Positions 2,911 through 57,542 of a stretch of DNA of 64,000 bases are shown here, in pieces (within the stretch, counting starts at the first letter, position 1; each line of letters begins with the position of its first letter). The stretch spans positions 1,059,295 through 1,123,294 of the forward strand of contig CAWBAT010000006.1 in the NCBI GenBank assembly GCA_963786955.1. The letters run 5' to 3'. The notes beneath the pieces were generated by a model. The model was not told where the DNA came from and ran no database searches. It worked only from the letters and a program-made list of their open reading frames with translations. The position numbers were made by a program, and so were the translations under genes. The DNA comes from an uncultured Acidimicrobiia bacterium (GTDB lineage: Bacteria > Acidobacteriota > Terriglobia > Versatilivoradales > Versatilivoraceae).

Positions 2911-5170
2911 ATGAGCACTACTACAAAGATGACCTCAGAAGGAGTGATGCTGGCCTGGCGGTGCTTTCAGCCAGGCCTATGGCAGAAAGAAATCAACGTT
3001 CGCGATTTCATCCAGCAGAACTACACGCCCTACGAGGGAGACGACTCCTTCCTTGCGCCCCCGACGGAGCGCACCACGAAGATCTGGAATCATTTGAAGG
3101 AACTGTTTGTGGAGGAGCGCAGAAAAGGGGTCCTCGACGTCTCCGTAATTCCAAGTTCCATTACCGCGCACGGACCGGGCTACATTGATCGCGAGAATGA
3201 AGTCATCGTCGGTCTTCAGACCGAGGCGCCGCTCAAACGCGCCATTATGCCCAATGGTGGATTTCGCATGGTTGTCAACGCCCTCAAAGCGTACGGCTAC
3301 AAGCCCGATCCGCACGTTGTTGAGACATTCACCAAATATCGCAAGACGCACAACGAGGCCGTGTTCGATGCCTACACGGCAGACGTCAGGCGGTGTCGCA
3401 GCTCGCACATCCTCACTGGCCTGCCCGACGCTTACGGGCGCGGCCGCATCATTGGCGACTACCGCCGCGTGGCCCTTTACGGGGTCTCCCGGCTCATTGA
3501 ACGGAAACAGCAGGAAAAACTCAGCCTCGATGCAGCCATGTCAACGGAAGAGATTATCCGCGACCGGGAAGAACTCAGCGAGCAGACCCGGGCGCTCAAA
3601 GAACTGCAGCAGATGGCCGCCAGTTACGGATTCGATATCTCGTTGCCGGCCAGCAATGCCCGAGAAGCCGTCCAGTGGCTTTACTTTGGCTATCTGGCGG
3701 CCGTGAAAGAACAGAACGGCGCCGCCATGTCTTTAGGCCGGACGTCGAGTTTCCTCGACATCTACTTTGAACGGGACCTTGCGGCTGGCACGATCACCGA
3801 GGCCGAGGCCCAGGAGATCGTCGATGATTTCGTGATTAAACTGCGCATCGTTCGCTTTTTGCGCACACCGGAATACGATGACCTTTTCGCCGGCGATCCT
3901 ACTTGGGTCACCGAGTCGATTGGCGGCATGGGAGACGACGGCCGGACGCTGGTAACGAAAACGAGCTTTCGCTTTCTCCAGACCCTCTACAACCTCGGCC
4001 CTGCCCCGGAGCCGAATCTGACCATCTGGTATTCCCCGCGTCTTCCCGATGGCTTTCGGCATTTCTCCGCCAAAGTCGCGATCGACACGAGTTCCCTTCA
4101 ATTCGAAAACGACGAAATCATGCGCCGCGCTTGGGGCGACGACGGAGCGATCGCCTGCTGTGTGTCTCCGATGCTGGTCGGCAAGCAGATGCAGTTTTTC
4201 GGCGCCAGGGCCAATCTCGCCAAGTGTCTGCTTTACGCCATCAATGGCGGGCGGGACGAAATCAGTGGAAAACAGGTGGCCCCCAACTTTGGAGGAGTCC
4301 AAGGCGAAATCCTCGAATTCGATGACGTGAGGGAGAAGTTCGAGAAGATGATGGATTGGCTTGCCAAATGTGTACGTCAATGCCATGAACATCATTCACT
4401 TCATGCATGACAAGTACGCCTATGAACGCATCGAAATGGCATTGCACGACTACGCCCCGCTGCGGACGATGGCGTTCGGCATCGCAGGCCTGTCCGTCGT
4501 GGCCGACAGCCTGTCGGCGATCCGAGACGCAAGAGTGCGTGTGCTGCGGGACGAGACCGGGCTCGTGACCGGCTATCAGACCGAAGGTGATTTCCCCAAG
4601 TTCGGCAACAACGACAATCGCGTTGACCACCTCGCTACCTGGGCAGTGAGCACCTTCATGAGCAAGTTGAGGAAGTACCCCACTTATCGAAATGCGCTGC
4701 ACACCCAATCGGTCCTGACAATCACTTCGAACGTCGTGTACGGAAAAAACACTGGCGATACTCCAGACGGGCGGCATCGCGGGGAACCCTTTGCTCCAGG
4801 TGCGAATCCAATGCATGGTCGGGATCAACATGGCATCCACGCATCGGCGGCATCGGTTGCGAAGATCCCGTATCGTGATGCTGCTGACGGAATCTCGTAT
4901 ACCGTGTCGATGGTGCCGCAAGGCCTTGGAAGAGTCGCGGAGGACCGGATAACCAATCTGACAAGCATGCTCGATGCATTCTTTGGCAGCACCGGCTATC
5001 ACATGAACGTGAACGTGTTTAATCGCGAGACACTTCTGGACGCGATGGATCATCCCGAAAAGTACCCGCACCTGACGATTCGCGTGTCCGGCTATGCAGT
5101 CAATTTCGTGCGATTGACTCGAGAACAACAATTGGATGTGATCAATCGCACCTTCCACGGATCCGTGTAA
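2911..5170 (+). CDS. pflB: Pyruvate formate-lyase, split by one frameshift near 4365-4370
   Basis: [17 protein letters not shown], active-site AIACCVS and glycyl-radical TIRVSGYAV. ORFs 2911-4410 and 4361-5170 join as WLA-(K/N)-VYVNAMN. Confidence 0.92.
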
Positions 5171-5171
5171 C

Positions 5172-6017
5172 ATGAGTGATAGCCCGCAGGTACAGCCAGT
5201 TTCTTTGGAGGCGAAGAGTCCCTTCGAACTTCGCGTCAACCTGGGCCAGCATGTTCCGGAGACCGACGTCCGAACGGCACTCGCCACTGGAGATATGGGC
5301 TTCGTTCACTCGTTTACCACAGGGTCGACTTGGATGGACCCGGAGTGCGTGTGGTGGCCTGGCTCACCGGCTGCCAGTTTCGCTGCCTCTACTGCCACAA
5401 TCCCGATACCTGGAGAATGACGAACGGAGTTCCAGTCACCCTGGAAAGGGCGAAAGCCCAACTCGGCGAAGTACCGCCACGGGCTTAAGGTCATGAAGGG
5501 TGGGCTCACCGTGAGCGGTGGCGAACCCTTGATGCAAGACCGGTTTGTCGTCAAGCTATTCACTGCTGCGCAAGCCATGGGAATTCATACGGCTCTCGAC
5601 AGCAACGGATACTTGGGCAGTCGCCTTACCGATGAGGATCTGGAGAAGATTGACCTGGTACTGCTGGACATTAAGGCCTGGGACCCAGAGCGGCATCACC
5701 GGCTGACCGGCATGGACCCGGGTCCAGTGTTTGAGTTTGCGCGCCGTCTGGCAATCCGCCAAAAACCTGTCTGGCTGCGCTACGTGCTGGTGGCTGGGTT
5801 GACGGACGACCCGGAAGAAATCGCCCATATTGCCGACTTCACTGCCAACCTGGGTAACGTGGAACGGGTCGATGTATTACCCTTTCATCAGATGGGCGCA
5901 TTCAAGTGGAAGCAGCTCGGCATCGAATATAAACTTCAGGATGCGGAACCACCATCAAAGGAAACCCTCGATAATGTATGCGCTCAGTTCCGGTCGGCAG
6001 GGCTCAAGGTCTACTGA
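5172..6017 (+). CDS. pflA: Pyruvate formate-lyase activating enzyme (radical SAM), frameshifted
   Basis: GFVHSF near the start, [14 protein letters not shown] (CxxxCxxC) in another frame at about 5370-5412, then [11 protein letters not shown] and LPFHQMG. At least two indels. Confidence 0.9.
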
Positions 6018-6098
6018 ATTTATGGCTGCGATTCGATCAACGTCCGAACTTAACCTCCAGAAAGCGCTCACAATGTTGTCGTCTTAACAAACTCAAAC

Positions 6099-6285
6099 GC
6101 CGGGTCGGTGACCCGGCCTACAACTTTGTAGGCCGCTTAGAGTTTGGACATTGGAGCAGGCCAGATGCCTGCAGCTGGAGATTGGACATTTGTGCAAGTT
6201 TGTAGTGCCGGCTTTAGCCGGTCCTGAACATCACCGCCTGAAGGCGGTACTACAAACTTGTGGTGCGGGCGTCCTCGCCTGCCGC
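6099..6285. repeat. Cluster of GTAG-type REP-like hairpins
   Basis: CCGGGTCGGTGACCCGG-CCTAC (near-identical copy at 44581-44617), the pair GTAGTGCCGGCTTTAGCCGG / CCGCCTGAAGGCGGTACTAC, and GCGGGCGTCCTCGCCTGC. Confidence 0.75.
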
Positions 6286-6295
6286 CGACAGAACG

Positions 6296-6500
6296 AAACG
6301 CCAGGAGCGCCAAGCACGCCAAGAAAAGAGGATACACGTCAGTCAACCGCCCGATCTTATCCTACCCGTAGTTCTTCCGGATGCTTTCTGGCTACCCGCT
6401 GGATGCCGTCGCGCAACAATATCACGTTCCAAATCCTTAGCGACTTCGTCGGCGGTCTAGAAGGTTCGTACTCTTGGCGACCTTTGCGTTCTTGGCGTTT
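6296..6500 (-). mobile_element. Element with period-9 inverted repeats enclosing a collapsed GxxExxY-like gene
   Basis: 29-bp imperfect IRs at 6296-6324 and 6472-6500 built from CGCCAAG units every 9 bp. The interior translates WNVILLRDGIQRV, like the GxxExxY C-terminus. Confidence 0.6.
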
Positions 6501-6626
6501 CCCAATTCTGGGAGTCATCTGCTCAACGGAGGATCCCGAAATGAACCGATCATCCAAGCTTAGGTTAGCGCTTATGGGTCAACGTCCCCGGCTACAGCCA
6601 TTACCGCAATTTTATGCAACTGAGCA

Positions 6627-8204
6627 CTAAGGCTTTGGAGTTGAGGGAGTAGCAGGCACATTCAGTGCGGGCGGGTTGCCCATCCATTCCGCATCCTTGA
6701 GTTTCCATCCTCCTCCTAGCGACTTGTAGAGTTGGACGATGACCACGCGACGATTGAGTTCAGTGATAGCCAGTGAGTTCTGAGCGGGGAAGAGCAGTTG
6801 TTGAGCGTCAAGTACTTCGAAGTAGCTGGCCTTGCCCGCATTGTAGCGCTGGAAGGCAACTTTGACCGATTCTTCATAGGCTTGCACTTCGCGGATCTGC
6901 TCGATGCGGATGGCGTCATATTTCTGGCGCGAGATCAGAGCGTTAGAAACATCTTGAAAAGCATTCAAGGCCGTCAGTTCATACTGTAGTTTAGCTTGTT
7001 CCCAAGCAGCAACGGCCTGCCGCTTTTGGGCCTTGAGGGCACCCCCCTGGTAAATGGGGCCGGCGAGATTTCCCGCAACGCTCCAGGCATTGCCGGCACC
7101 CGAGGAGAACTCAGACAGTGGACCACTCACGTGTCCTAAGAACGTCGTGAGACCAATCTGCGGGAAAAATGCCGCGGTCGCAACCCCAATCTGAGCGTTG
7201 GCAGACCGCACTTGTTCTTCAACAGAAAGCACATCCGGCCTGCGCTCCAGCAAGGAGGAAGGCAAGCCGGCGGGAATTTCGGGTGGGATGATCTCTTCGA
7301 GCAATTTTGACTTCAACGCGATCGGGCCTGGGTTCTGCCCGAGAAGGACACTGATTTGGTTCTCTTTTAAAGCAATCTGCCGTTCAAACTCGGGAATCGT
7401 TGCAGCAGCCGAAGCCTGTGCAGCTGCGGCGCGAGAGGTCTGTAGTTTTGAGGCTACGCCTCCTTCAAGTCGTTGGGTGAAAAGTTTGAGGGTCTGATTG
7501 AACGATTCCGTGTTCTCTTTGGCGATTTCGAGCTGCAGATTCAATCCGAGCAGTTCGAAGTAAGCTTGGGCTACATCACTGACGAGCGAAAGCATGACGG
7601 CACGCTTGGCATCCTCGGTCGAAAGATATTGTGCTTTAGCCGATTCGTTCAGTCGGCGAATTCGCCCCCATACGTCCGCCTCCCAGGCAGCACTGATCAG
7701 CCCCACGAAGCCCCCCTGGGTCTCCCCCCCATTAGTAATGACATTCCCCCCCAGTTCGTTCCTGCCGCCGCTGACGGACGATGCGTAATTCACAAAAGGG
7801 AGAAATTGCGAATGGGCCTGGGCAGCAAGCTGGCGAGATTGCTCAACGCGCGTCACTGCAATGCGCAGGTCGTAATTATTGGTGAGAGCGGTCTGGATGA
7901 GCCCTTTCAGCGTTTCATCCTTGAACACCTCCCACCAGGGTAAATCGGCAAAAGAAGCCTGTTGTGCTGCTCCTTCCTGGCCGCGAAAGTCGGTTGGAAC
8001 ATTGACTACCGGTCGTTTGTAGTTGGGACCGACTGCGCAACCGGAAAGGAGGACGATCAGGGGGGAAATAGTAAGAAGAAGCAAGATGCAGGAAAGCCGG
8101 GGTGAGCCACCAGTTCGCCACAATCGCGCGCTGAAGAAACGAGCAGCCTGTAAGCCATGTATCCTAGCGCACCCAATGGTCCGGACTGTGTTTATTCTGG
8201 TCAT
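6627..8204 (-). CDS. RND efflux outer membrane factor lipoprotein (NodT/OprM type)
   Basis: Lipobox LLSGC-AVGPNY, WEADVWGRIRR, LLERRPDV and LYKSLGGGW. The true start may be downstream of 8204. Confidence 0.93.
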   Translation of the reverse strand: MTRINTVRTIGCARIHGLQAARFFSARLWRTGGSPRLSCILLLLTISPLIVLLSGCAVGPNYKRPVVNVPTDFRGQEGAAQQASFADLPWWEVFKDETLKGLIQTALTNNYDLRIAVTRVEQSRQLAAQAHSQFLPFVNYASSVSGGRNELGGNVITNGGETQGGFVGLISAAWEADVWGRIRRLNESAKAQYLSTEDAKRAVMLSLVSDVAQAYFELLGLNLQLEIAKENTESFNQTLKLFTQRLEGGVASKLQTSRAAAAQASAAATIPEFERQIALKENQISVLLGQNPGPIALKSKLLEEIIPPEIPAGLPSSLLERRPDVLSVEEQVRSANAQIGVATAAFFPQIGLTTFLGHVSGPLSEFSSGAGNAWSVAGNLAGPIYQGGALKAQKRQAVAAWEQAKLQYELTALNAFQDVSNALISRQKYDAIRIEQIREVQAYEESVKVAFQRYNAGKASYFEVLDAQQLLFPAQNSLAITELNRRVVIVQLYKSLGGGWKLKDAEWMGNPPALNVPATPSTPKP

Positions 8205-8242
8205 GGTGCAATTTGAGTTCCCTGTCTTTACCTTGTAAGAAT

Positions 8243-11200
8243 CTAATGACTGACTTCGGGACCCCCGGGAGTTAGACCCTCTGCGCCTGTACCTTCTGTG
8301 GATATTCCGCCCTCAGGCTTCGCGCCTTCGTGCTTTGCCCCGCCGAGTTTTTCAATGACGTAGAATAGAGCAGGGATGATGAAGATAGCGATGGCACTGG
8401 CGGCTGTCATACCGCCAATCACAGCACTGCCCATTACCTGACGGGAGATTGCCCCCGCCCCGGTAGCCCTCCAGAGCGGTACACAGCCCAAGATAAACGC
8501 GAACGAGGTCATCAGTATGGGACGGAGACGGAGTTTGGCCCCTTCCAATGCAGCATCCGCTAGTGGTCTACCCTTCTCGAATTCCGCTTTGGCAAACTCC
8601 ACAATCAAGATGGCGTTTTTGGCGGCAAGTCCAATCAGCATGATGAGGCCGATTTGTGCATAGACGTTATTCTCGAAGGACAAACTTTCGAACCGGCGCC
8701 AATACAGCGTCCCCAACGCGCCAAAAACGGCAACGGGCGTGCTCAACAGCACGCTGAAGGGCAGCGTCCAGCTTTCGTACAACGCCGCCAGGATGAGAAA
8801 AACAAACAAGACGGATAATCCGAAAATGACGGAAGGCGGCACGCCTTGTTGCGCCTTCTGTTCCTGATAGGACATGCCCATATAGTCGAAACCCATTTCT
8901 CGCGGCATGGTCTGGGCAAATACTTCCTCAAGGACCTTCATGGCTTGAGCGGAACTATAGCCGGTGGCGGCGCTGCCATTGATCTGCGCGGCTTGATACA
9001 TGTTGTAATGCATCGTGTACTCAGGACCTAGCCGCGGTTCTAGCGACACGACCGTAGAGAGCGGGACCATTTGACCGGAGGTGTTGCGCACATAAAAGCG
9101 GCCCACATTTTCGGCCTGCGTTCGGAAATCCCCTTCGGCCTGAACGTAAACCTGCCAGGTGCGTCCGAAACGGTTGAAGAAGTTAATAAATGCCCCGCCC
9201 ATGAAGGCCTGCACCGTTTTGTAAACATCGCCGATGTCCAGGCCTTGTTTGAGCACTTTGTCACGATCCACGTTGACATAGAGCTGCGGGACAGCCGGCA
9301 AGGCCACGGTGAAAACGCCGGAGAGCTCAGGTCGCTTGCGCAACTCAGCCAAGAACTTGGTCAGGTTTTGGGCGAGGAATTGAACACCCTGTCCGGACCG
9401 GTCCTCAAGGACGAAAGTAAAGCCTCCCGAGGTCCCCACACCGGGGATCGCGGGTGGCGGAAAGGCGACCGCATTGCCGCCTGCAATTTGCTTCAGCCCA
9501 GTGCTCATGTGGGCTTTGATGGCTGAATACTGCTCTTCGGGGGCCTTGCGTTCGCTCCACTCCTTCAGGGTAACCCAGAAAAAGGAACTGTACGTATTCT
9601 GCACACTGCTCAGCATGTTGTAACCGATCACGCTCGTCACGTGGGCGACACCGGGGGTGTTCCTGAGTGACTTCTTCGACTTGGCTCGCCAAGGCATCGG
9701 TGCGCTGCAAGTGAAGAGGCATCTGGAAGTTGCAAGGCAACGTAGACGTAGCCCTGGTCTTCATCGGGCAGGAAGCTAGTGGGCAGCTTCATACCAAACC
9801 AGCCAGCCAGAGCGGTGAAGCCGAGCAGCAAAATGATCATGATGCCCATTTTGTGAATCAGCGCGCCGCACCAACTCACATAGCCGTCTGTCGCCTTACC
9901 AAAGACGCGGTTAAACCAGCGGAAGAAAGCTCCTAGCGGGCCGCGGGACTCCTTTTTGGGACGAAGCAGCAAGGCGCCAAGTGCTGGGCTGAGAGTGAGT
10001 GCATTGAAGGCCGAAATGACGACGGACACTGCAATGGTTACCGCGAACTGTTGATAGAGGCGCCCTGTGATGCCCGGGAATAAACGCGGTAGGAATGAAT
10101 ACTGCAGACAAGGACGATGGCGATGCCCACCACTGGCGCGGAGACCTCCTCCATGGCTTTAAAGGCCGCATCTTTCGGTGAAAGTCCGTGCTCGATGTGG
10201 TGTTCTATCGCCTCGACCACCACAATAGCATCATCGACGACTAGCCCAATGGCCAACACCAGGCCAAACAGCGAAAGTGTGTTGATCGAGAACCCAAGGA
10301 GCGGAAAAATCATGAATGTGCCGACCAGCGACACAGGCACAGCTAACAGCGGGATCAAGGTTGCTCGCCAGCCTTGCAGGAAGATAAAGACGACGAGGAT
10401 CACGAGGACCAAGCGCTTCAATAGCGTATGCTCAATTTCAACAATGCCCTCTGTGACCGGGAGGGTCGTGTCCAGAGCAATGGCGTACTCAAGGCCCGGC
10501 GGGAAGCGTTCTTTCAACTTCTCCATCAATTTCTTAGCCCCATCGGCCGCCGCGACGGCGTTGGATCCGGGAAGTTGGTAAATCGCTACGATCGCCGCTG
10601 GCTTGCTGTCCAGGCGGCCACGCAGGTTATACACTTGGGAACCGAGATTGACCCGAGCCACATCCTTGAGCCGCACCAGCGAACCATCGGGATTGGCGCG
10701 GACGACGATGGCGCCAAACTGCTCTTCTGTAGAAAGGCGGCCCTGGGCAATGACAGCGTAAGTGTACTGCTGCCCGTCTGGCACCGGTTCACCACCGATA
10801 GTTCCCGCTGGATTCACGGTGTTCTGCATTTTAACGGCGTTGATGATCTCAGGCACAGTAATCTGCAGCTTGGCTAGCTGGTCCGGATCGACCCAAAAAC
10901 GCATCGCGTATTGGCCGGCGCCGAAAACCGATACGCTCGCAATCCCATAGGAGCGGGTAAAGTTATCGACGAGATTGATGTAAGCATAATTGGCCAGGAA
11001 TTGGGCGTCGTACCGACCATCTGGAGCATAGAGGTCGAACAACATCAGAGGGGCAGCTGTGGACTTCTGGACAACGACGCCTTGGGCATTCACTTCAGGC
11101 GGAAGTTGCGAGGCTGCCTGTGACTGGCGCATCTGGGCAAGAATCAGGTCGGTGTTGGGGTCGGTCTTCACATCGAAATCCACCGTCAAGTTCCCCAAGC

Positions 11201-11456
11201 CGCTGTTCTGATTGAGGGAATACATGTAGTTCATGTTGTCCACGCCGCTCATCTTCTGTTCAATCGGCGTGGCCACAGACTGGTCCACCGTTAGGGCATC
11301 GGCACCAGGGTAGGTGGCATTGATCTGGATCTGAGGGTCAGCGATGTTGGGGAATTGGGCAGTGGGTAAGCTGACGATTGCAAGGCCGCCAACGATGACC
11401 ATGACGATGGAAATCACCATGGCAACGATGGGGCGGTTGATGAAGAATTTAGACAT
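8243..11456 (-). CDS. HAE1-family RND efflux permease, split into three ORFs by frameshifts
   Basis: [44 protein letters not shown] and [15 protein letters not shown] across ORFs 10038-11456, 9637-10029 and 8243-9697. Confidence 0.92.
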
Positions 11457-11758: not shown

Positions 11759-13087
11759 TTACTGGTTCTTCCCTGCCGGGTTCTCCTGGAAAGGCTTCGG
11801 ATTCACCTGCACACCTTCTCTCACCTTTTGCATCCCTTCAGCAACGATACGCTCGCCTGGCTTAAGGCCTTCCTCGATGACCCACAATGTTCCATATCGC
11901 GAGCCTACTTTGACAGGCCGGAGGCTGACTTTGTTGTCATTGCCCAAGACGGCCACCAGGTAACGGCCTTGTAATTCACTGACCGCTCTTTGGGGTATTA
12001 GCAACGCCCCCTTCTGAATCCTTGCAATGGTACTGATCTTGCCAAAACCACCTGGACGAAGAACATTATTAGGATTAGGGAATACCGTTTGAAACAGGAT
12101 GGCGCCCGTCCTCAAGTCAACTTCGCGGTTGACGGCAAAAAAGTGGCCTGTTTGTGGGAACACAGAACCGTTGGCAAGCTGCAATTGAAACTCCAGTTTG
12201 CGTAAGGCTTCATCTTGACTGGTGTGGGCAATTTCTTGGGCGTATTTGAAAGCGTTGAGGTATTCCTGCTCACTAGCCATGAAGTTCACCTTGATGGGAT
12301 CCACCGTGGAAACCGTCGTTAGGGCGCCACTTTGCGGGCCGACGAGGTCACCCACCTGGGCTGTCGAGATCGCGGCCACACCATCGACCGGCGAGAGAAT
12401 AGAGGTGAAGCCGAGATTCAACTGAGCGGTATCGACCGCGGCGTTCGCTGCCATAATGTTGGCTTTGGCGGCTTCGATGGCTGCCTTGTCCGCCTCAACC
12501 TGCGCTTTGGCAGCGAGGTCGGCTTGGATGGCATCATCCAATTCTTGCTGGCTAATCGCGCTCTCCTTGGCCAACGGTGTATAGCGGGCGACATCTAATT
12601 CAGTCTTGCCTAGTCTTGCCAGTCCGACTTGGAGATTGCCATTAGCTTGATCCAGATTTCCCTTGGCCTGATTGACATTTGCCTTAGCTTGATCGAGGGC
12701 GGCCTGAAACGGTCTGGGATCGATCTGAAAAAGCGGGGCGCCTTTCCGGACAAAAGCACCATTGGTATAAATCTGTTTGAGTAGATAGCCGGAGACTTGG
12801 GCCCGAATCTGAGCGTTGACGAAACCATCCAGGGTTGCCACCCACTCTTTCGTGATCGGCACATCCTTCTGCACGACCTCGATGACTTCGACATCCGGAG
12901 GAGGAGGGGCTACGACCTCTTTCTTCTCGCACCCTGTCGAAAGCAAGACCGTGAATGCCACGACGCCACATACAAAAAACTGCCGCTTCTCCCCACGGAG
13001 CGGGACTGGAGCAGAGGACGAGTTCGTTTTTGATCCAAAAAGCTGCTGTGCTCGAAACATAGGCGACTCAACCTCTCTTTCGTTCAA
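11759..13087 (-). CDS. RND efflux periplasmic adaptor (MFP) lipoprotein
   Basis: Lipobox LSTGC, IRAQVSGYL, LFQIDPRPF, an extended coiled-coil hairpin, LRPGGF and GLKPGERIV. Start uncertain (13087 or ATG 13060). Confidence 0.93.
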   Translation of the reverse strand: MNEREVESPMFRAQQLFGSKTNSSSAPVPLRGEKRQFFVCGVVAFTVLLSTGCEKKEVVAPPPPDVEVIEVVQKDVPITKEWVATLDGFVNAQIRAQVSGYLLKQIYTNGAFVRKGAPLFQIDPRPFQAALDQAKANVNQAKGNLDQANGNLQVGLARLGKTELDVARYTPLAKESAISQQELDDAIQADLAAKAQVEADKAAIEAAKANIMAANAAVDTAQLNLGFTSILSPVDGVAAISTAQVGDLVGPQSGALTTVSTVDPIKVNFMASEQEYLNAFKYAQEIAHTSQDEALRKLEFQLQLANGSVFPQTGHFFAVNREVDLRTGAILFQTVFPNPNNVLRPGGFGKISTIARIQKGALLIPQRAVSELQGRYLVAVLGNDNKVSLRPVKVGSRYGTLWVIEEGLKPGERIVAEGMQKVREGVQVNPKPFQENPAGKNQ

Positions 13088-13182: not shown

Positions 13183-13436
13183 GTATGCTTCCACTGATAG
13201 TGATTTACGGGCCTGAGGGCTCTTTTCGGCATGCTCACCCGCGCATTTCGGTGACAGTGCCTAAGCGAGACAGCCCATCACCACCAAGAGGATAATTATT
13301 TATCCTGGGGCTGGCAAGGTAAAGTTTCCTCATTTTCTGACTTGCATCTCGTAAAGCCCCTGGGTGGCGATTCGGGCGAAGCAGACCGCTAGTTGCGAGC
13401 AGCGAGCGAAATCTGCGAGGAGGATCAGTCGGTGAA

Positions 13437-13844
13437 TTATTCTTGAAGCAATGTCTCGCGAACTGCCTTGAGTTCCTTCAACTTCTCTTTGCTAACCTCG
13501 GGGTATTTCAGTTCCAGTGAAGCCAGCGTGTCAATGATTGCCCCGGCCACCACCACGCGCGTGAACCACACATCACGTGTCGGACGGCGCCGTCCTTGCC
13601 GGCTGCATCCATGGCTTGAAAGATGAGCAACGGCCCAGCTGTCTTGCGCATAGAGTCGTCCTTGCAGTTCTGAGAGCGCTTCCACGCCCATCGCCAGGGC
13701 TTCTTTGGCGCGAGGTTTATCCTCGGCTGTGAAATCACTGGTGTCAGCAGGATCGACATCTTTAAGACGAAACCCTTTGCCTTCATTTACCCGGTAGGGT
13801 CGTGAGAATTTACGGGCCTTTTCGAACTGTTCTTCCATTTTCAT
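13437..13844 (-). pseudogene. ppk2: Polyphosphate kinase 2 (class III-like) with a large internal deletion
   Basis: The N-terminus (GKGFRLKDVDPADT...LYAQD...IFQAMDAAGKDGAVRHVM) is fused directly to the C-terminus (WFTRVVVAGAIIDTL...YP). Only about 135 codons remain. Confidence 0.85.
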
Positions 13845-13905
13845 AAGTATTTCTACCTCTTTTTATTTTCCGATCGCTTCCTAGTTCGAAGGCGGTGCTT
13901 AAGGA

Positions 13906-14015
13906 TACCCCGGAGGGGTAATGGAGGATAGCCTGGGGCAAAGTGTAGTGAAGCGACGCCCCAGGCCTGCTTTCCTATCCCAAAATTCTCAATCGCCCCG
14001 GCAGGGGCGGAGGGC
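13906..14015. repeat. Left hairpin arm of the tnpA locus (inverted copy of 14469-14576)
   Basis: TACCCCGGAGGGG...GCCTGGGGCAAAG...GACGCCCCAGG and CGCCCCGGCAGGGGCGG are reverse complements of the right-arm motifs. Confidence 0.85.
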
Positions 14016-14016
14016 A

Positions 14017-14463
14017 TTACCATAAATAACGCGCATCATACTCAATCCCGCTTCTGTTCAAAAACTCCACGTATTCCTCCTGAAAGGTTTTCTTACGGTG
14101 ATGCGCTTTCTGTTCTCGAATATATTTCCGAACTGCCTCGATCAGGGACGGACTAACGGTAAACCCACCGTACCCAGTCTGCCATGCAAACTTGCTGGAG
14201 CCGATCTCGTCATGAACCCATTTAGACGATGCGCCTTTAATATCCTCTAACACATTGGCCAAGCAATGCGTGGGCCGAAGACCGATTAGAAGGTGCACAT
14301 GGTCAGCCGTGCCATTGATCTCAACTGGCACCCCTCCAGCACGACGGACCAATCCGCCCAGGTATGCGTGCAAGCGGTGTTGCCACTCTTTGGCGATCAA
14401 TGGATAACGATTCTTGGTGCTAAAAATCAAATGGAAATGCAAACTGGAATGTGTCGAGGGCAT
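14017..14463 (-). CDS. tnpA: IS200/IS605-superfamily Y1 HUH transposase, stand-alone (REP-associated type)
   Basis: HLIFSTKNR, HUH motif DHVHLL, WQTGYGGFTVS and catalytic helix YIREQ. 148 aa from ATG 14463. No tnpB. Confidence 0.9.
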   Translation of the reverse strand: MPSTHSSLHFHLIFSTKNRYPLIAKEWQHRLHAYLGGLVRRAGGVPVEINGTADHVHLLIGLRPTHCLANVLEDIKGASSKWVHDEIGSSKFAWQTGYGGFTVSPSLIEAVRKYIREQKAHHRKKTFQEEYVEFLNRSGIEYDARYLW

Positions 14464-14520
14464 GGATCGCTCCTTCACCCCTGCCGGGGCGGCACGTAAA
14501 AATACGCAACGAATAACCAA

Positions 14521-15030
14521 CCTGGGGCGTCACTTCGCTTTGCCCCAGGCTACCATCCAATGCCCCCTCCGGGGTAATTCACAAAAATAACGAACAAAAG
14601 GGGCGCCGCTTCGCTTTGCCCAGGCTACCATCCAATGCCCCCTCCGGGGTAATTCACAAAAATAACGAACAAAAGGGGCGCCGCTTCGCTTTGCCCCAGG
14701 CTACCATCCAATGCCCCCTCCGGGGTAATTCACAAAAATAACGAACAAAAGGGGCGCCGCTTCGCTTTGCCCCAGGCTACCATCCAATGCCCCCTCCGGG
14801 GTAATTCACAAAAATAACGAACAAAAGGGGCGCCGCTTCGCTTTGCCCCAGGCTACCATCCAATGCCCCCTCCGGGGTAATTCACAAAAATAACGAACAA
14901 AAGGGGCGCCGCTTCGCTTTGCCCCAGGCTACCATCCAATGCCCCCTCCGGGGTAATTCACAAAAATAACGAACAAAAGGGGCGTCGCTTCGCTTTGCCC
15001 CAGGCTAATCTCCGACGCCCCTTCAGGGCA
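14521..15030. repeat. Tandem array of a 76-bp unit (six full units plus a divergent seventh partial unit)
   Basis: CAGGCTA recurs at 14546, 14621, 14697, 14773, 14849, 14925 and 15001. Unit GGGGCGCCGCTTCGCTTTGCCCCAGGCTACCATCCAATGCCCCCTCCGGGGTAATTCACAAAAATAACGAACAAAA. Confidence 0.95.
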
Positions 15031-15289
15031 GATAGTGGCCACAAAACTACAGCCCATTAATTGCCAACAGACTCGGATGTTTCCCAATTGACGGAAGATC
15101 ACGGTGCATAGAACAGTGCAGAGTGTAGGAATAACGAGGAGAGCCAATATTAGAAAGAAACTGACCACAGATAGTCGGGAGCCGAGGCCGATCCTGAGCT
15201 GCAATGCTTGCTCCCACGATGCCACCGGGCTGATCATGTCGGCCGCATTCGCGCCCCCCCACCTAAAATCAGAATGCGCTTCTTTGCGG

Positions 15290-15961
15290 CTAAGGCCCAG
15301 CCTTTCCAGAAACCTCTTTCTCCCAGAGGAGAATCCCTCCCAATAACGCATTGGCGTTTTCGCCTGCCCGGCAGCCAGGGGGCAGCTTTTTCAGTTTTTT
15401 AACGTTCCCCCCTCCCAGCACAACCTCATCAGGTTCAAGTGCAGCCGTCAATCGGGCCACTACATCTTCCACGTCTTTCCGCCATTTTTTCTTTCCCCTT
15501 TTCTCTAATCCGCGCAGCCCCACATAGTCCTCATAAGTCCCCTTCTTGTAAGGAAAATGTCCTAATTCCATGGGCTCCAGAATGCCATCGACAATCAGAG
15601 CGGATCCGAGGCCGGTTCCCAGCCCCAGGAAACGCATTACTCCGCTCTTATAACTCCCCAGTGCTTGCATGGAGGCATCATTGACAAGCTTGACTGGACA
15701 ACCAAATGCCTTTCCAAAATCAAAACCGACCCACCCATTTCCAAGATTGTAGGGGTCCAAAAATGGCCGCCCCCGCAGAACCGGCCCCGGGTAGCCAATC
15801 GACACGACGTCATATTTCCACTCCTTGGCAAGCTCTTTGACTCCGGAGACCATTCCTTCGGCCGTCATCTCTGGCCCGGAGGGAAACTTTCGAATTTCGG
15901 TTTGGCCCGTGGCAAGAATCTTGACGTTGGTCCCACCCACATCTACAACCAGAATCTTCAT
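15290..15961 (-). CDS. ppgK: ROK-family polyphosphate glucokinase-like sugar kinase
   Basis: VDVGGTNVK, IGYPGPV, NDASMQALG, LGLGTGLGSAL, ELGH and VVLGGGN. Confidence 0.8.
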   Translation of the reverse strand: MKILVVDVGGTNVKILATGQTEIRKFPSGPEMTAEGMVSGVKELAKEWKYDVVSIGYPGPVLRGRPFLDPYNLGNGWVGFDFGKAFGCPVKLVNDASMQALGSYKSGVMRFLGLGTGLGSALIVDGILEPMELGHFPYKKGTYEDYVGLRGLEKRGKKKWRKDVEDVVARLTAALEPDEVVLGGGNVKKLKKLPPGCRAGENANALLGGILLWEKEVSGKAGP

Positions 15962-36036: not shown

Positions 36037-36600
36037 TCATGGCTGGCCGATCGGACCCCGGTGCATCCCATGCCGCATCCCGCCAAAGCCTGGCCCACCG
36101 AAATGTTCTCCTTGCGGGGCATCGATCAAGCCTAATGCAGCAGCCTGATGAGCGGCTTGTTGCAACGATAAAGCCTGTTGCAGATTGGCCAACGAACTCT
36201 TCTGCGCGTCAGAAAGGAGCGCCAGGAATTGCGGTCGTTGTTCATCGCGCTTGGTTTTGATCTGGCTGCGGAGACTCTTCACATCCACCATCAATTGGGC
36301 TACGACGGCAGAATCCGGAGAGGCCTTGTCCAATTCTTGCCTCAGTTCCTCTTGCTTAGTCATGATCTGTTCGTGAATCGGCTTGACGGCGTCGCGAAAA
36401 GAGGTCTGAAGGGCCGTGATGGATTGCACCTGCTGGTCGGAAAGCTGCAGAAAAGTTTTCAACGCGTCCAATTTTTGCGCCCCCCAAGCAGGCCCCCCAG
36501 GCGGTGGCCCCCAGCCAGGCCCCATGGGCGGTGGACCTTGCTGGGCCAGCACTGTTCCAATACTCAACACAAATGCGAGCAATACAGTTGTTTTTTTCAT
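36037..36600 (-). CDS. Spy/CpxP-like periplasmic protein
   Basis: Signal peptide, two LTxxQ-like motifs (LQLSDQQ, LLSDAQ), a helical core and Gly/Met/Pro-rich ends. Confidence 0.75.
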   Translation of the reverse strand: MKKTTVLLAFVLSIGTVLAQQGPPPMGPGWGPPPGGPAWGAQKLDALKTFLQLSDQQVQSITALQTSFRDAVKPIHEQIMTKQEELRQELDKASPDSAVVAQLMVDVKSLRSQIKTKRDEQRPQFLALLSDAQKSSLANLQQALSLQQAAHQAAALGLIDAPQGEHFGGPGFGGMRHGMHRGPIGQP

Positions 36601-55007: not shown

Positions 55008-57542
55008 CTAATGAAGAGGCTGCTGGCTGCTGGTCTTAAGCGAGGTTAGCCGCTGCTCGATCTCGCCGATCCGCGCCCGGTTTTCTGGGACGTTCTTCGA
55101 AGCGTTGGCCTGAAATCGATAAGTCTTGCCTTTGAACTGAATTTTGAGTTTATCACCTGTTTCCACTTGCACAATTTCCGATAGCTTCAAGGCAAACCCA
55201 TCGTTCGAATCGGTCGATGGAATATAGGCGATCTGATATCCATTAAATCTAAGACGCCCTGTGCAGCTTCCAATCGTATGGTCGTGAATCACTGCATAGG
55301 CATTGAATGTGAGTCGGTCTATTTCCCTTTTCAAGTCTTGACTACTGAGAGGAACTCCATTTTCGTTTTGGGAGAGATAAAGCAGAGCTGAATAGACAAG
55401 CTTGGCGTCATCATATTTGCCATCCTGGGCCAATGCTTTGGCTTGGGAAACGGCCTTCATCAGACTATCCTTCTTGAGTTCGAGGGCTTTTGGAGCCTGA
55501 GGTTGGCTCGCCAGGAGCAGGTTGCAATAGGCAATCACGTTATCCGTTGCGGGCGTGACATAGTGCCCGGCGCTCATTGCGGCCTCTGCCTTCTGCATCC
55601 AGGAATTTCTTGATTCTATGAGGCGGGATTCTTCGGCCTTAAGACTCTCAACCAGGGTTTTCAATTCGGGAGTCTCAGGAAAGTAGTTCTGCATTTGTTT
55701 AACGAGCGTGCTCGCACTCGCATAGTCTCTGGCTTGGAGGCTTCGATTCGCTTGAGCGACCAGGTTGTGAAGGATTTGGTCGAGTTTTTCCTTACTGAAA
55801 GAACTGTCGGGAGAAATGACATCCAGTTTTTGGATGAGTTCGATGGCATTCCCTGGATTCGGGGGTAGGTATCGCCCGGCACTGAGGGCAATAGTTATTT
55901 GTTGTTGCAGGTCTTGAATTTTCTTCTCCTGGGCCTGTTTATTGGCCAGATCCATCTGCGATTGTTTTTTAAGGTTGGTTTTTGCGGTGTTCAGCTGCTG
56001 GGCTGCTTCCCGGTCGTTGGGATTGATTTTTAACACGTCAATCCATAGAGCGATTGCTTTCCCCCAATTACTGCTGGCCATCTCCCGGTTGCCGAGATCT
56101 CTGAGGCGCTCGTGAATTTGTTGTTTCAAATTCAATGCAAACGAGTTCTTGGGCTCAGCTTGCAAAATAGAATCACACAAACGATTGGCTTCCATGAACC
56201 TTCCTTGCTTGAAGGCTTTTTCGGCCTGGGCGTGTTCATCCCCTTCAGCGGACTTGGATAGATCTATTGGGGGCCGCAGTCGATCTGCTGGGACGGCGAG
56301 ATTGCTATTTGATTGAGGCTGAACTTCCGTACTCTTCATCTGCCTTGGTGGGCCTAGAACAAGCCAGGCACCCAGGATCAAACCAAACAACAATCCTGCG
56401 CCGAGCAGGTAAACAAATCTTAGATTCTTAGTTTCTGGCTTTAAGCCGCTTTCGGAAGTGCCCGTCATTTTTCCCAATTCGCGTTCCTGATCCACGGCCG
56501 TCCATTCTGAGCTGAGATCTCTGGGACTCCCCTCAAGGGACTTTCTGGTCACATCATTTCTTATTTTCTCGGGGAGAGACTCGGAAGGGAGTTCTGACTT
56601 TGCCTTGAGAAGTGAGTTTACGGGATTCGAACTCAGACTCGAGTTGGGCGACAAAGACTCACTCGCGTCATCCGGTTCTTGGTGCACGGCCCGAGAAGGC
56701 ACCGGAGAGAGTTCCGCTTGAACCTGCACATCGGGCGCTGGAAGTTTCGATAGCGTCGTGCCCCGATTTTCCTGGGGAGGGGTGACCGTCACATTCGGAG
56801 AGAGCTCCGATTGAACCAGCACATCAGGCGCCGGAAGTTTCGATAGCGTTTTGCTCCGATTCTCGGGGGGTGCGGCGATCGTCACATTCGAAAGAGACCG
56901 CTTTTGTTTCTCGGCCTCCTCTATGCTAATTTGCAAATAATCGCGAAGATCATGATTCTCCGGGTCCAGTTCCGTGAGCAGTTTGAACCTCTGAACACAC
57001 TCGCTGTAGCGCCCATGTTCAAAAAATTTCAGGGATTCTGCTTTGAACTGCGCGATGCGATTGCCAAGATCTGAATCTGCTGGTTGGAGTTGCGATTCCT
57101 GTTCGGCTCTTTCAATCAATGCGAGGACTTCCGGATTTCCCGGCGCCATTTTGTGAGCCTCATGCAGGATATCCAGGCAAGCTTTGAAGTCTTGTTTTTC
57201 GTAAAGTGCGTGGGCCCGCCCCAGAAAGCGATTAAGGTAGGGCAGATCTGGTTGTAAACTTTTTTCAGGCGGCGGTTGACTGGCCTGGCGGATTTTTTCT
57301 ACATCCTGGAGAAGCTTTCTGAGATTCTGTTCTAGAGTTAAGGTAGGGCTTTCATCCTTTGATACTAGAGGGCTTGTCAGGTCCACCATACTAGAGGCGC
57401 CTTCGAAAAAACGTCCCGGGGTTGCCAGATCTTTGTCCTCTACAAGGCCATCTTCGAGACCTCGCCAGCCATTTTCAAGCGGAGAAGACTTTTCTTCCGC
57501 GCTCCCCTTACTGCTTTCTGCAGAATCTCTGAGTTCCGACAT
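55008..57542 (-). CDS. Single-pass membrane TPR-repeat protein
   Basis: TPR-like helices on both sides of one TM segment (FVYLLGAGLLFGLILGAWLVLG). C-terminal HDHTIGSCTGRL domain and an internal 31-aa duplication. Confidence 0.8.
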   Translation of the reverse strand: MSELRDSAESSKGSAEEKSSPLENGWRGLEDGLVEDKDLATPGRFFEGASSMVDLTSPLVSKDESPTLTLEQNLRKLLQDVEKIRQASQPPPEKSLQPDLPYLNRFLGRAHALYEKQDFKACLDILHEAHKMAPGNPEVLALIERAEQESQLQPADSDLGNRIAQFKAESLKFFEHGRYSECVQRFKLLTELDPENHDLRDYLQISIEEAEKQKRSLSNVTIAAPPENRSKTLSKLPAPDVLVQSELSPNVTVTPPQENRGTTLSKLPAPDVQVQAELSPVPSRAVHQEPDDASESLSPNSSLSSNPVNSLLKAKSELPSESLPEKIRNDVTRKSLEGSPRDLSSEWTAVDQERELGKMTGTSESGLKPETKNLRFVYLLGAGLLFGLILGAWLVLGPPRQMKSTEVQPQSNSNLAVPADRLRPPIDLSKSAEGDEHAQAEKAFKQGRFMEANRLCDSILQAEPKNSFALNLKQQIHERLRDLGNREMASSNWGKAIALWIDVLKINPNDREAAQQLNTAKTNLKKQSQMDLANKQAQEKKIQDLQQQITIALSAGRYLPPNPGNAIELIQKLDVISPDSSFSKEKLDQILHNLVAQANRSLQARDYASASTLVKQMQNYFPETPELKTLVESLKAEESRLIESRNSWMQKAEAAMSAGHYVTPATDNVIAYCNLLLASQPQAPKALELKKDSLMKAVSQAKALAQDGKYDDAKLVYSALLYLSQNENGVPLSSQDLKREIDRLTFNAYAVIHDHTIGSCTGRLRFNGYQIAYIPSTDSNDGFALKLSEIVQVETGDKLKIQFKGKTYRFQANASKNVPENRARIGEIEQRLTSLKTSSQQPLH

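Follow-up and report, generated by a model that had tools for sequence, protein, structure and literature searches.

A stretch of 64,000 nucleotides from an uncultured Acidimicrobiia bacterium (contig CAWBAT010000006.1 of assembly GCA_963786955.1, positions 1,059,295 to 1,123,294), assigned by GTDB to the Acidobacteriota and hereafter called the window, carries a stand-alone tnpA gene of the Y1 HUH type (14017-14463, minus strand) between two mirror-image arms made of small hairpins, one of which is extended into a 76-bp tandem array. The locus is probably REPtron-like, that is, organized like the loci that pair a gene of this kind with inverted repetitive extragenic palindromes (REPs), and it would be served by an enzyme of the IS200 class and not by a classical REP-associated tyrosine transposase (RAYT). 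By analogy with characterized enzymes, the hairpins would be single-stranded DNA substrates and the array a product of local amplification. At the core of this reading stands a two-hairpin module which is real, covarying, strand-specific and family-wide.

In the window, the two flanks of tnpA are mirror images of each other, with inverted pairs of segments that are complementary over 47 nt (79%), 20 nt (90%), 19 nt (89%) and 13 nt (100%). The downstream arm contains one module on the plus strand (13898-13967), whose hairpins were recovered by DNA folding and which consists of an outer hairpin with a GGA loop (TACCCCGGAGGGGTA, 13906-13920), a tetranucleotide foot (ATAG, 13928-13931) and, directly after the foot, the middle hairpin (CCTGGGGC..GCCCCAGG, 13932-13965). 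Between this module and the gene, 8-23 nt past the stop codon, lies an inner hairpin to which no strand was assigned (CGCCCCGGCAGGGGCG, 13994-14009) and which corresponds to the 20-nt pair, the other member of this pair being 14472-14491. The upstream arm begins with its own inner hairpin (CCCCTGCCGGGG, 14478-14489, likewise without assigned strand), found both as a motif match and in the DNA fold and inverse to the CCCCTGCCGGGG at 13996-14007. It continues on the minus strand with an intact proximal module (14519-14584) made up of the middle hairpin (14521-14549), a GTAG foot (plus-strand CTAC, 14550-14553) and the outer hairpin (14563-14574), and all three hairpins of this arm appear in the DNA fold. 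Five tandem modules follow (14598-14963, minus strand), and a divergent distal module on the same strand (14977-15038) closes the array with a TTAG foot (plus-strand CTAA, 15005-15008), a linker (GGAGAT) near the family consensus and a variant outer hairpin at 15017-15029 (GCCCTGAAGGGC; variant motif GCCCCTTCAGGGC). Read in the orientation of the gene, the feet are GGTAGCC in the proximal arm and in the array units, ATTAGCC in the distal unit and GATAGCC in the downstream arm.

A covariance model of the module (R1), built from homolog loci alone with the window left out, matched the window eight times, always inside 13898-15038: at 50.9 bits (E 4.5e-10) in the downstream arm, at 49.2 bits (E 1.1e-09) in the proximal module, at 22.3, 31.2, 31.2, 31.2 and 31.2 bits in the five tandem modules and at 42.4 bits (E 3.9e-08) in the distal one. 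The intact arms fold into three hairpins with z values of -1.9 to -2.4. The middle-hairpin motif has two matches, those named above, a number reached by none of 100 shuffled sequences, and the outer-hairpin motif CCCCTCCGGGG has seven, all within the locus (2.4 expected; 1 of 100 shuffles reaches seven); the two matches of the inner-hairpin motif are not significant on their own (0.62 expected; 10 of 100 shuffles reach two). None of the hairpin motifs was found elsewhere in the 64 kb. Alignment of one flank with the other was also tried as a test of the arms in the window and was rejected, its score of 27.5 falling short of 34.0, the 99th percentile of a control across loci which is inflated because the loci share the motif.

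The original prediction, made from the letters of this DNA by a model, had described an intact 148-residue Y1 HUH gene without tnpB, mirror-image three-hairpin arms and, upstream, a 76-bp array of near-identical units with a variant end, and in all three respects it proved correct. It was mistaken in seeing no obvious GTAG foot, since the window carries GTAG, TTAG and ATAG, and TTAG (112) and GTAG (34) are the usual feet across the relatives, followed by ATAG (2) and CTAG (1).

The plan of the module was read from the surroundings of related genes. A scan of 185,579 species genomes gave at least 593 confirmed matches (at least 599 stretches), the best 80 of which were analyzed as loci L001-L080; nearly all come from metagenome-assembled genomes (MAGs), and copy numbers are therefore lower bounds, because repeats collapse in such assemblies. 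By their titles the 80 loci belong mostly to Acidobacteriota, Verrucomicrobiota and Planctomycetota. Their shared module comprises an outer hairpin of about 5-6 bp with a C-G-closed GNA triloop, a linker of about 9 nt (consensus C-G/A-G-A-n-A), a (T/G)TAG foot and a middle hairpin starting with CC, whose commonest stem in the relatives is CCGGTGG..CCACCGG, where the window has CCTGGGGC..GCCCCAGG. On its gene-ward side come a further linker and then, at about 16 nt from the open reading frame (ORF), an inner hairpin that is of the same kind as the outer one. GNA loops closed by a C-G pair are exceptionally stable in single-stranded DNA.

For the analysis of covariation, 135 modules near genes were gathered by the presence of TAGCC and a perfect 6-bp stem, a choice that forces pairing at the outer six positions of the middle-hairpin stem; the outer hairpin was no criterion of selection. 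Over these modules 93.3% of the cells were paired (shuffles, 76.3%) and covariation scored 0.401, compared with 0.115 in the shuffles, none of 500 of which reached the observed value, while controls with slid partners had at most 48% of their cells paired. The unselected outer hairpin had 86.5% of its cells paired and showed double changes at all six pairs. Other features recur as well, namely the GNA triloop (104 of 135 modules), a G at position -5 from the foot (127 of 135) and a GCGNAGC mini-hairpin within the middle loop (36 of 135). A stem of at least 6 bp stands right after the TAG at 136 of the 157 TAGCC sites that are preceded by a GNA hairpin, compared with 64 of the 664 that are not. 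The inner hairpin adjacent to the ORF was found in 111 of 159 homolog arms and in 54 of 308 control windows, its loops being GGCA (32), GGA (30) or GAA (7).

The module is concentrated around the gene. R1 gave 234 matches in the 80 loci. Counted with a profile hidden Markov model version, from which the locus and orientation counts below also come, modules number 3.4-3.5 per kb up to 300 bp from the gene and 0.01-0.03 per kb beyond 1 kb (a simple scan for TAG plus a 6-bp stem is noisy far from genes). A module lies within 600 bp of the gene in 70 of the 80 loci and on both sides in 50, mostly in inverted orientation; the foot is distal to the gene in 144 of 185 near-gene modules, the other 41 being flipped. 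The two arms of a locus also resemble each other in kind: the same type of middle-hairpin stem occurs in both arms of 37 of 44 loci, where shuffling of the partners gives 18.4 (maximum 27), and in 28 of 78 loci the upstream flank aligned with the reverse complement of the downstream flank above the 99th percentile of the inflated control.

Two distant relatives extend this pattern. A Persicobacter protein with 40% identity is encoded between arms of the same three hairpins, TTAG and ATAG being the feet on both sides, and R1 matched these arms at 23.7 and 19.9 bits in the expected positions and strands. A Bernardetia relative (L081, 38% identity) gave no R1 match and has AT-rich inverted repeats of another sequence (1386-1468 and 1992-2064; 32 nt, 94% complementary), with GTAG inside and two tandem copies on each side. 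The arms of these two relatives indicate that the association reaches the Bacteroidota, one of the phyla in which this subclass of enzymes was first described. In one further locus (L033), two divergent paralogs (4569-5015 and 6001-6438), 44% and 58% identical to the query, stand about 1 kb apart with a module near each. The prediction of a REPtron-like system in a poorly characterized TnpA subgroup is upheld by these flanks, in which the arms are present, and the subgroup can now be named as TnpAY1 subclass 1.2.

The ORF of tnpA in the window, counted from its ATG, is intact and encodes a protein of 148 residues which matches Pfam Y1_Tnp (PF01797; E 2e-23) and the NCBIfam model for IS200/IS605 transposases (67.5 bits, above the cut-off of 55), and which is assigned to the subclass 1.2 type by these matches together with alignment and structural model. 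A search of a protein collection returned 3035 relatives at E <= 0.001 from 3048 candidates; the 120 relatives listed are mostly of exactly 148 residues and 60-89% identical. In an alignment of 30 relatives the HUH motif (H55-V-H57) and the catalytic tyrosine (Y114) are invariant, and M1-P-S-T-H5, W94, Q95, Q118, H121/H122 and L147-W148 are invariant or nearly so. The motifs of the window protein read ADHVH, AWQ (W94-Q95) and YIREQKAHH (Y114-x3-Q118-x2-H121-H122). Also, the C-terminal tail (residues 119-148), which ends in YLW, is conserved, with F127, E130, Y131, L135, D143, L147 and W148 invariant. No helix-turn-helix (HTH) domain was detected in the protein by Pfam, no tnpB lies beside the gene and no second tnpA copy occurs within the 64-kb window. 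A Shine-Dalgarno-like AAGGAG (14470-14475, minus strand), which may act as such, is located 6 nt upstream of the ATG, right after the inner hairpin.

An AlphaFold model of the protein (pLDDT 84.3) has the TnpA fold, with a beta-sheet core and helices, and a Foldseek search placed it closest to the structures of ISDra2, IS608 and IS200 TnpA (E 2e-08 to 1e-06), with ISDra2 structure 2xm3_D at E 2e-08; the REP-associated enzyme of E. coli (4er8_A) came at rank 30 (E 6.3e-04). Modeled in two copies, the protein scored 0.79, while the best of three controls scored 0.00, and in the dimer runs contact agreement was at least 94% and the pLDDT of the partner at least 87. Of 30 proteins whose solved structures are pairs, 20 reached the mark applied to such models, and of 23 solved as single chains 1 did. 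On the basis of these models the tnpA product is predicted to be a dimer, although the pass may reflect mere likeness to IS608 and ISDra2, whose dimers are solved. The E. coli TnpA-REP enzyme, in contrast to this prediction, is a monomer.

By analogy, the product of tnpA would be a Y1 HUH single-strand DNA endonuclease and ligase and the arms its cognate substrates. In the manner of IS608 TnpA, ISDra2 TnpA and E. coli TnpA-REP, it would bind the hairpin and its foot in DNA that is single-stranded; a nearby cleavage site would be chosen with the help of the tetranucleotide lying 5' of the stem, and cutting and rejoining would proceed via a 5'-phosphotyrosine link. With modules facing the gene on either side, the active strand would differ between the arms, which is also the case in REPtrons. 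The WQ motif fits recognition of a GTAG-type foot and is no proof of it.

The tandem array, on the 5' side of tnpA, was delimited by Tandem Repeats Finder at 14524-15007, with a period of 76 bp, 6.4 copies as assembled, 98% matches and a score of 940. Its start-to-start spacings are 75, 76, 76, 76, 76 and 76 bp. Four units, starting at 14675, 14751, 14827 and 14903, are identical, one lacks a C and both end units have diverged. Read in gene orientation, each unit has the outer hairpin, the GTAG foot, the middle hairpin, whose stem is shortened to 5 bp by loss of the final 3 bp, and a T-rich linker. The array is best seen as a recent, local, head-to-tail amplification seeded by an internal repeat of the arm. 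The inner hairpin plus linker, aligned to the outer hairpin plus array linker, scored above all of 2000 shuffles in the window, and the inner hairpin resembles the first half of another array unit; since outer and inner hairpins are near-repeats, the arm was already about 1.5 periods long. Growth could then have occurred by replication slippage or unequal exchange, or by cutting and rejoining by the enzyme at equivalent sites. The HUH-primed replication that had been proposed found no specific support, and slippage from the outer hairpin to its inner likeness would account for the array just as well.

Amplification of the module, also part of the original prediction, recurs elsewhere: same-strand modules (two or more on one side) occur next to the gene in 21 of the 80 loci, for example as 4.1 copies of 126 bp (L050), 3.1 copies of 122 bp with 99% matches (L063) and 2.9 copies of 105 bp (L013), the highest number among these arrays being the 6.4 of the window. 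These independent assemblies bear on the concern that assembly produced the array, or its copy number, as an artefact and that the symmetry of the arms in the window is inconsequential. Short reads could not count four identical 76-bp units, and the window shows signs of indel errors or gene decay in an AcrB-like gene that is spread over three frames. Yet two diverged units bound the array and a variant unit lies inside it, and the intact arms match a model that had not seen the window at 49-51 bits. Given all this, an artefact is scarcely credible, and the existence of the array, in view of the tandem modules in other assemblies, is plausible.

A number of observations weigh against a REPtron-like reading. 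As regards the enzyme, the tnpA protein has no class-2 Y-x3-NP motif (it reads YIREQ) and failed the NCBIfam RayT model NF047646 with 17.1 bits against a cut-off of 80. As regards the repeats, dispersed modules are rare: about 570 kb of homolog loci at distances above 1 kb from the genes gave 11 matches, and the remaining ~62 kb of the window gave none at E <= 0.01, so that many dispersed copies, the defining trait of REPs, are a weak point of the analogy drawn at the outset. The type of middle hairpin follows the protein tree weakly, with 20 changes compared with a mean of 23.6 and a minimum of 21 in 200 shuffles (the comparison was made without the rows of L001, L020, L021, L051 and L061). 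The array units score about 31 bits on R1 against 49-51 for the intact arms, and the DNA folds of two of them on each strand were no better than those of shuffles (z 0.21 and -0.49); array units may be inert by-products. The similarity of the linkers taken by themselves is weak, being reached by 156 of 2000 shuffles. Also, for the whole subclass it is by analogy that the arms would be substrates.

Further observations of the same tendency speak for a different kind of element. Here, arms and tnpA would form an autonomous, low-copy insertion sequence (IS), a variant of IS200 with long, structured, inverted ends that still transposes; gene-less doublets would be its miniature inverted-repeat transposable elements and the array a by-product. 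Inverted doublets without a gene occur in L004, L020, L057 and L058 (four in about 750 kb), and the one in L057 is the full element minus positions 6035-6436, 89% identical, 5 kb away and in unrelated flanks; it retains 34 bp and 8 bp of the ends of the ORF. A derivative at a second site implies that arms and gene moved or were copied as a unit at least once, in the manner of an IS. (Both copies in L057, at 5829-6580 and 640-993, have arms that are extended outward by a fourth small hairpin, the stem of which differs between the full and the gene-less copy and is self-complementary in both.) Genomic context is not conserved either: the ROK, GH63-like, membrane-fusion and PPK2-like proteins of the window have no counterpart in the 80 loci, barring one weak paralog match, and no neighbor family is common to more than 7 of 81 loci. 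Seven of eight examples of the most shared neighbors could be named by Pfam (response regulator/kinase, sulfatase, Ser/Thr kinase, DUF1501, argininosuccinate lyase, ABC transporter and planctomycete cytochrome), nothing in Pfam matched the eighth, and TnpB was not among the eight. In addition, the gene is disrupted by truncation, frameshift or internal stop in 5 of 81 loci (L001, L020, L021, L051 and L061), as in decaying elements, with the arms remaining, and the enzyme is nearest to true IS200/IS608 transposases.

Several properties are hard to reconcile with such an element. No near-identical gene copies were found among the 80 loci; two MAGs gave two loci each, and their copies are only 60.1% and 57.4% identical, unlike the scatter of identical copies that an ordinary IS200 shows and that the original prediction had named as evidence against itself. 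The family is nearly absent from plasmids, where 72,556 records held only two full-length relatives, both on non-mobilizable replicons of more than 600 kb, and no relatives occurred in 50,697 phage records. The ends of IS200/IS605 elements are generally known not to form inverted arms, and with inverted ends an enzyme specific for one strand would find its site on one strand at the first end and on the other strand at the second. Modules differ by locus in their number and in how they are oriented, unlike fixed IS ends. Like a housekeeping gene or a RAYT, the gene has also kept its catalytic motifs, by a strict pattern in 73 of 76 intact homologs. In our judgement an autonomous IS is unlikely, and the REPtron-like reading is retained as the probable one; the family as a whole is a mixture of RAYT-like and IS-like traits.

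It has to be considered, too, that the hairpins act in RNA or in transcription, as terminators, insulators or stabilizers of mRNA, with the array shielding tnpA from read-through out of the neighboring ROK-family gene, and that they are not substrates. The arms occupy the 5' and 3' untranslated regions, 2 nt separate the inner hairpin from the AAGGAG, and each array unit and the distal unit close, on the sense strand, with a GC-rich stem and a T-rich run behind it (distal unit, z -2.86); such roles have been credited to REPs and to the mosaic elements that they form (BIMEs) in the available text of PMC8266576. On the other hand, scans of 13300-15500 for consensus promoters and terminators gave 0 and 0 hits, under the shuffle means, although the terminator scan allows only loops of 3-8 nt and is blind to hairpins with a 13-nt loop, and Rfam at gathering thresholds gave no match in the whole window. 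The flipped modules near genes (41 of 185) and the gene-less doublets do not fit a fixed transcript element, and the conserved foot, which is strand-specific, and the GNA loops change strand between one arm and the other. The suggestion in the original prediction that the array yields a structured RNA found no support in the Rfam search, and the flipped modules argue against a fixed role in a transcript. A function in RNA is thus, in our estimate, highly improbable as an alternative to a REPtron-like locus with DNA substrates.

A wider proposition, which we put forward tentatively and hold to be doubtful, is that TnpA of subclass 1.2 and its two-hairpin, TAG-footed module form an ancient, multi-phylum partnership that stands between IS200 and the REP/RAYT systems, an IS200-class and probably dimeric enzyme being combined with inverted footed hairpins, rare doublets of the REPIN kind and locally growing arrays. 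It would then be a living intermediate of domestication, whose arrays would be made at the replication fork by the enzyme as it cuts and rejoins single-stranded modules. The question on which the family bears is the origin of REP sequences and domesticated transposases from IS200-like elements. In the available text of PMC8266576, biochemistry so far comes only from class-2 enzymes of Proteobacteria, and the present family offers a class-1 enzyme in a REPtron-like locus. Its short, covarying module, found from Acidobacteriota to Bacteroidota, provides defined oligonucleotide substrates and a covariance model for genome scans, and the recurring arrays provide a natural system in which a Y1 enzyme and slippage can be compared as amplifiers of hairpin repeats. 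Should the arms be ordinary IS ends, the known range of end structures in the IS200 family would still be widened.

The locus of tnpA has a GC content of 0.52-0.55, equal to that of its surroundings, which gives no sign of recent import. It is bordered by a ROK-family gene (15290-15961, by Pfam) and, beyond the downstream arm, by a decayed PPK2-like remnant (13437-13844, minus strand) made of two overlapping ORFs in different frames, whose Pfam PPK2 score of 19.2 bits is below the cut-off of 22.3; the two neighbors, of which one has decayed, may thus belong to polyphosphate and sugar-kinase metabolism. In the distal unit of the array an alternative, perfect 11-bp stem can form between AAGGGGCGTCG and CGACGCCCCTT (14977-14987 with 15013-15023, minus strand); in the sense direction of the ROK gene and tnpA a T-rich run comes after it, and the fold z is -2.86. 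Judged from its sequence, this stem could mark the end of the ROK transcript; it was not called by the consensus terminator scan. Farther away, a gene for a pump of the AcrB/AcrD/AcrF type of the resistance-nodulation-division (RND) family (8243-11456, minus strand) is split over three frames covering positions 1-443, 446-576 and 584-1020 of the Pfam profile; it is a pseudogene with two frameshifts or the result of assembly indel errors, since little sequence is lost, and is flanked by genes for an outer-membrane factor (6627-8312) and a membrane-fusion protein (11759-13087). Unrelated to the tnpA locus are a tandem repeat of 93 bp (56703-56890; 2.0 copies, 84% matches) and short GC-rich ones of 13 and 27 bp (36479-36534).

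Among known enzymes, the closest in description are those of TnpAY1 subclass 1.2, which in the available parts of PMC6006769 (Quentin et al. 2018) have a median length of 148 residues, the motifs DH[IV]H, WQ and YIKNQKEHH, 30 C-terminal residues forming a domain of their own and 1.7 copies per genome with 36% identity. The tnpA protein is like them in length, in motifs and in low copy number with divergent copies, and also in the C-terminal domain of about 30 residues, as far as this can be compared by published description. The WQ motif is common to the REP-associated subclasses, IS200 proper having W[TS], and W94/Q95 of the E. coli enzyme have been tied to GTAG recognition in the same available parts. 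Where the locus departs from the published subclass is in its surroundings. The REP column of Table 1 in the consulted portion of PMC6006769 reads 'no' for subclass 1.2, typical IS200 terminal structures are said to be generally absent, and Table S1, as far as available, has no rows for the subclass and no TTAGCC; in the present set, footed hairpin modules accompany 70 of 80 homologs and the gene of the window. The automatic REP search described there demanded a GT[AG]G foot and would for that reason miss TTAG. The hosts given there are Cyanobacteria and Bacteroidetes, while the 80 loci are mostly from Acidobacteriota, Verrucomicrobiota and Planctomycetota, to which two Bacteroidota records are added. 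The footed modules are thus a departure from the published description of the subclass and not from the protein family.

With REPtrons, of which E. coli tnpA-REP is the example, and as far as the available text of PMC8266576 and PMC6006769 describes them, the locus shares a single-copy Y1 HUH gene, inverted palindromes with a conserved 5' tetranucleotide (mostly GTAG in REPtrons), tandem copies near the gene and a distribution like that of a housekeeping gene. It differs in having a class-1 enzyme (Y-x3-Q) in place of a class-2 one (Y-x3-NP), a foot that is mostly TTAG, an extra upstream hairpin with a GNA triloop in each unit and few dispersed copies. IS200, IS608 and ISDra2 are nearest to the window protein in sequence and fold, and share the dimer with a joined beta-sheet that is predicted here. 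In that family, too, a tetranucleotide 5' of the hairpin serves as a guide, and the ends are different hairpins on one strand and not inverted arms, according to the available text of PMC8266576. Those elements are multi-copy, with near-identical copies and often on plasmids, they often carry tnpB, and their two subterminal hairpins are unlike each other and share a strand, whereas the present gene is single-copy, has inverted arms and is without tnpB.

Other systems offer partial parallels. REPINs, in the available text of PMC3116915, are like the doublets found here in consisting of two inverted units that form a longer, gene-less, hairpin-capable doublet, a likeness that also speaks for the REPtron-like reading, but here such doublets are rare, and the one in L057 is a deletion derivative of a full unit. 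TIRtrons, with their TIRYT genes (PMC3733652), are tyrosine transposase genes with long terminal inverted repeats, some of them self-complementary and some repeated in the genome, and their hosts include Acidobacteria. In the available parts of PMC6006769, 20 of 26 TIRYTs fall in subclass 2.1 and have HTH tails and a GGGGWSAS motif; the present proteins have no HTH tail by Pfam and the arms have a TAG foot (GGGGWSAS was not formally searched for). The 'IS200 Group 3' of PMC5581495, called by its authors the IS200 group closest to RAYTs, has no duplicates, none on plasmids and moderately abundant flanking 16-mers (21 occurrences) in the available text. These statistics are similar to those reported here, and the group may be the same family, but the available supplement text gave no matching protein motifs, and the available text of the paper describes no structure in the flanks. 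No prior description of these arms was found in the literature covered, subscription journals and ISfinder/TnPedia lying outside that coverage. REPtrons and subclass 1.2 were thus already known; what is new is a REPtron-like organization for a class-1 enzyme, with a two-hairpin unit.

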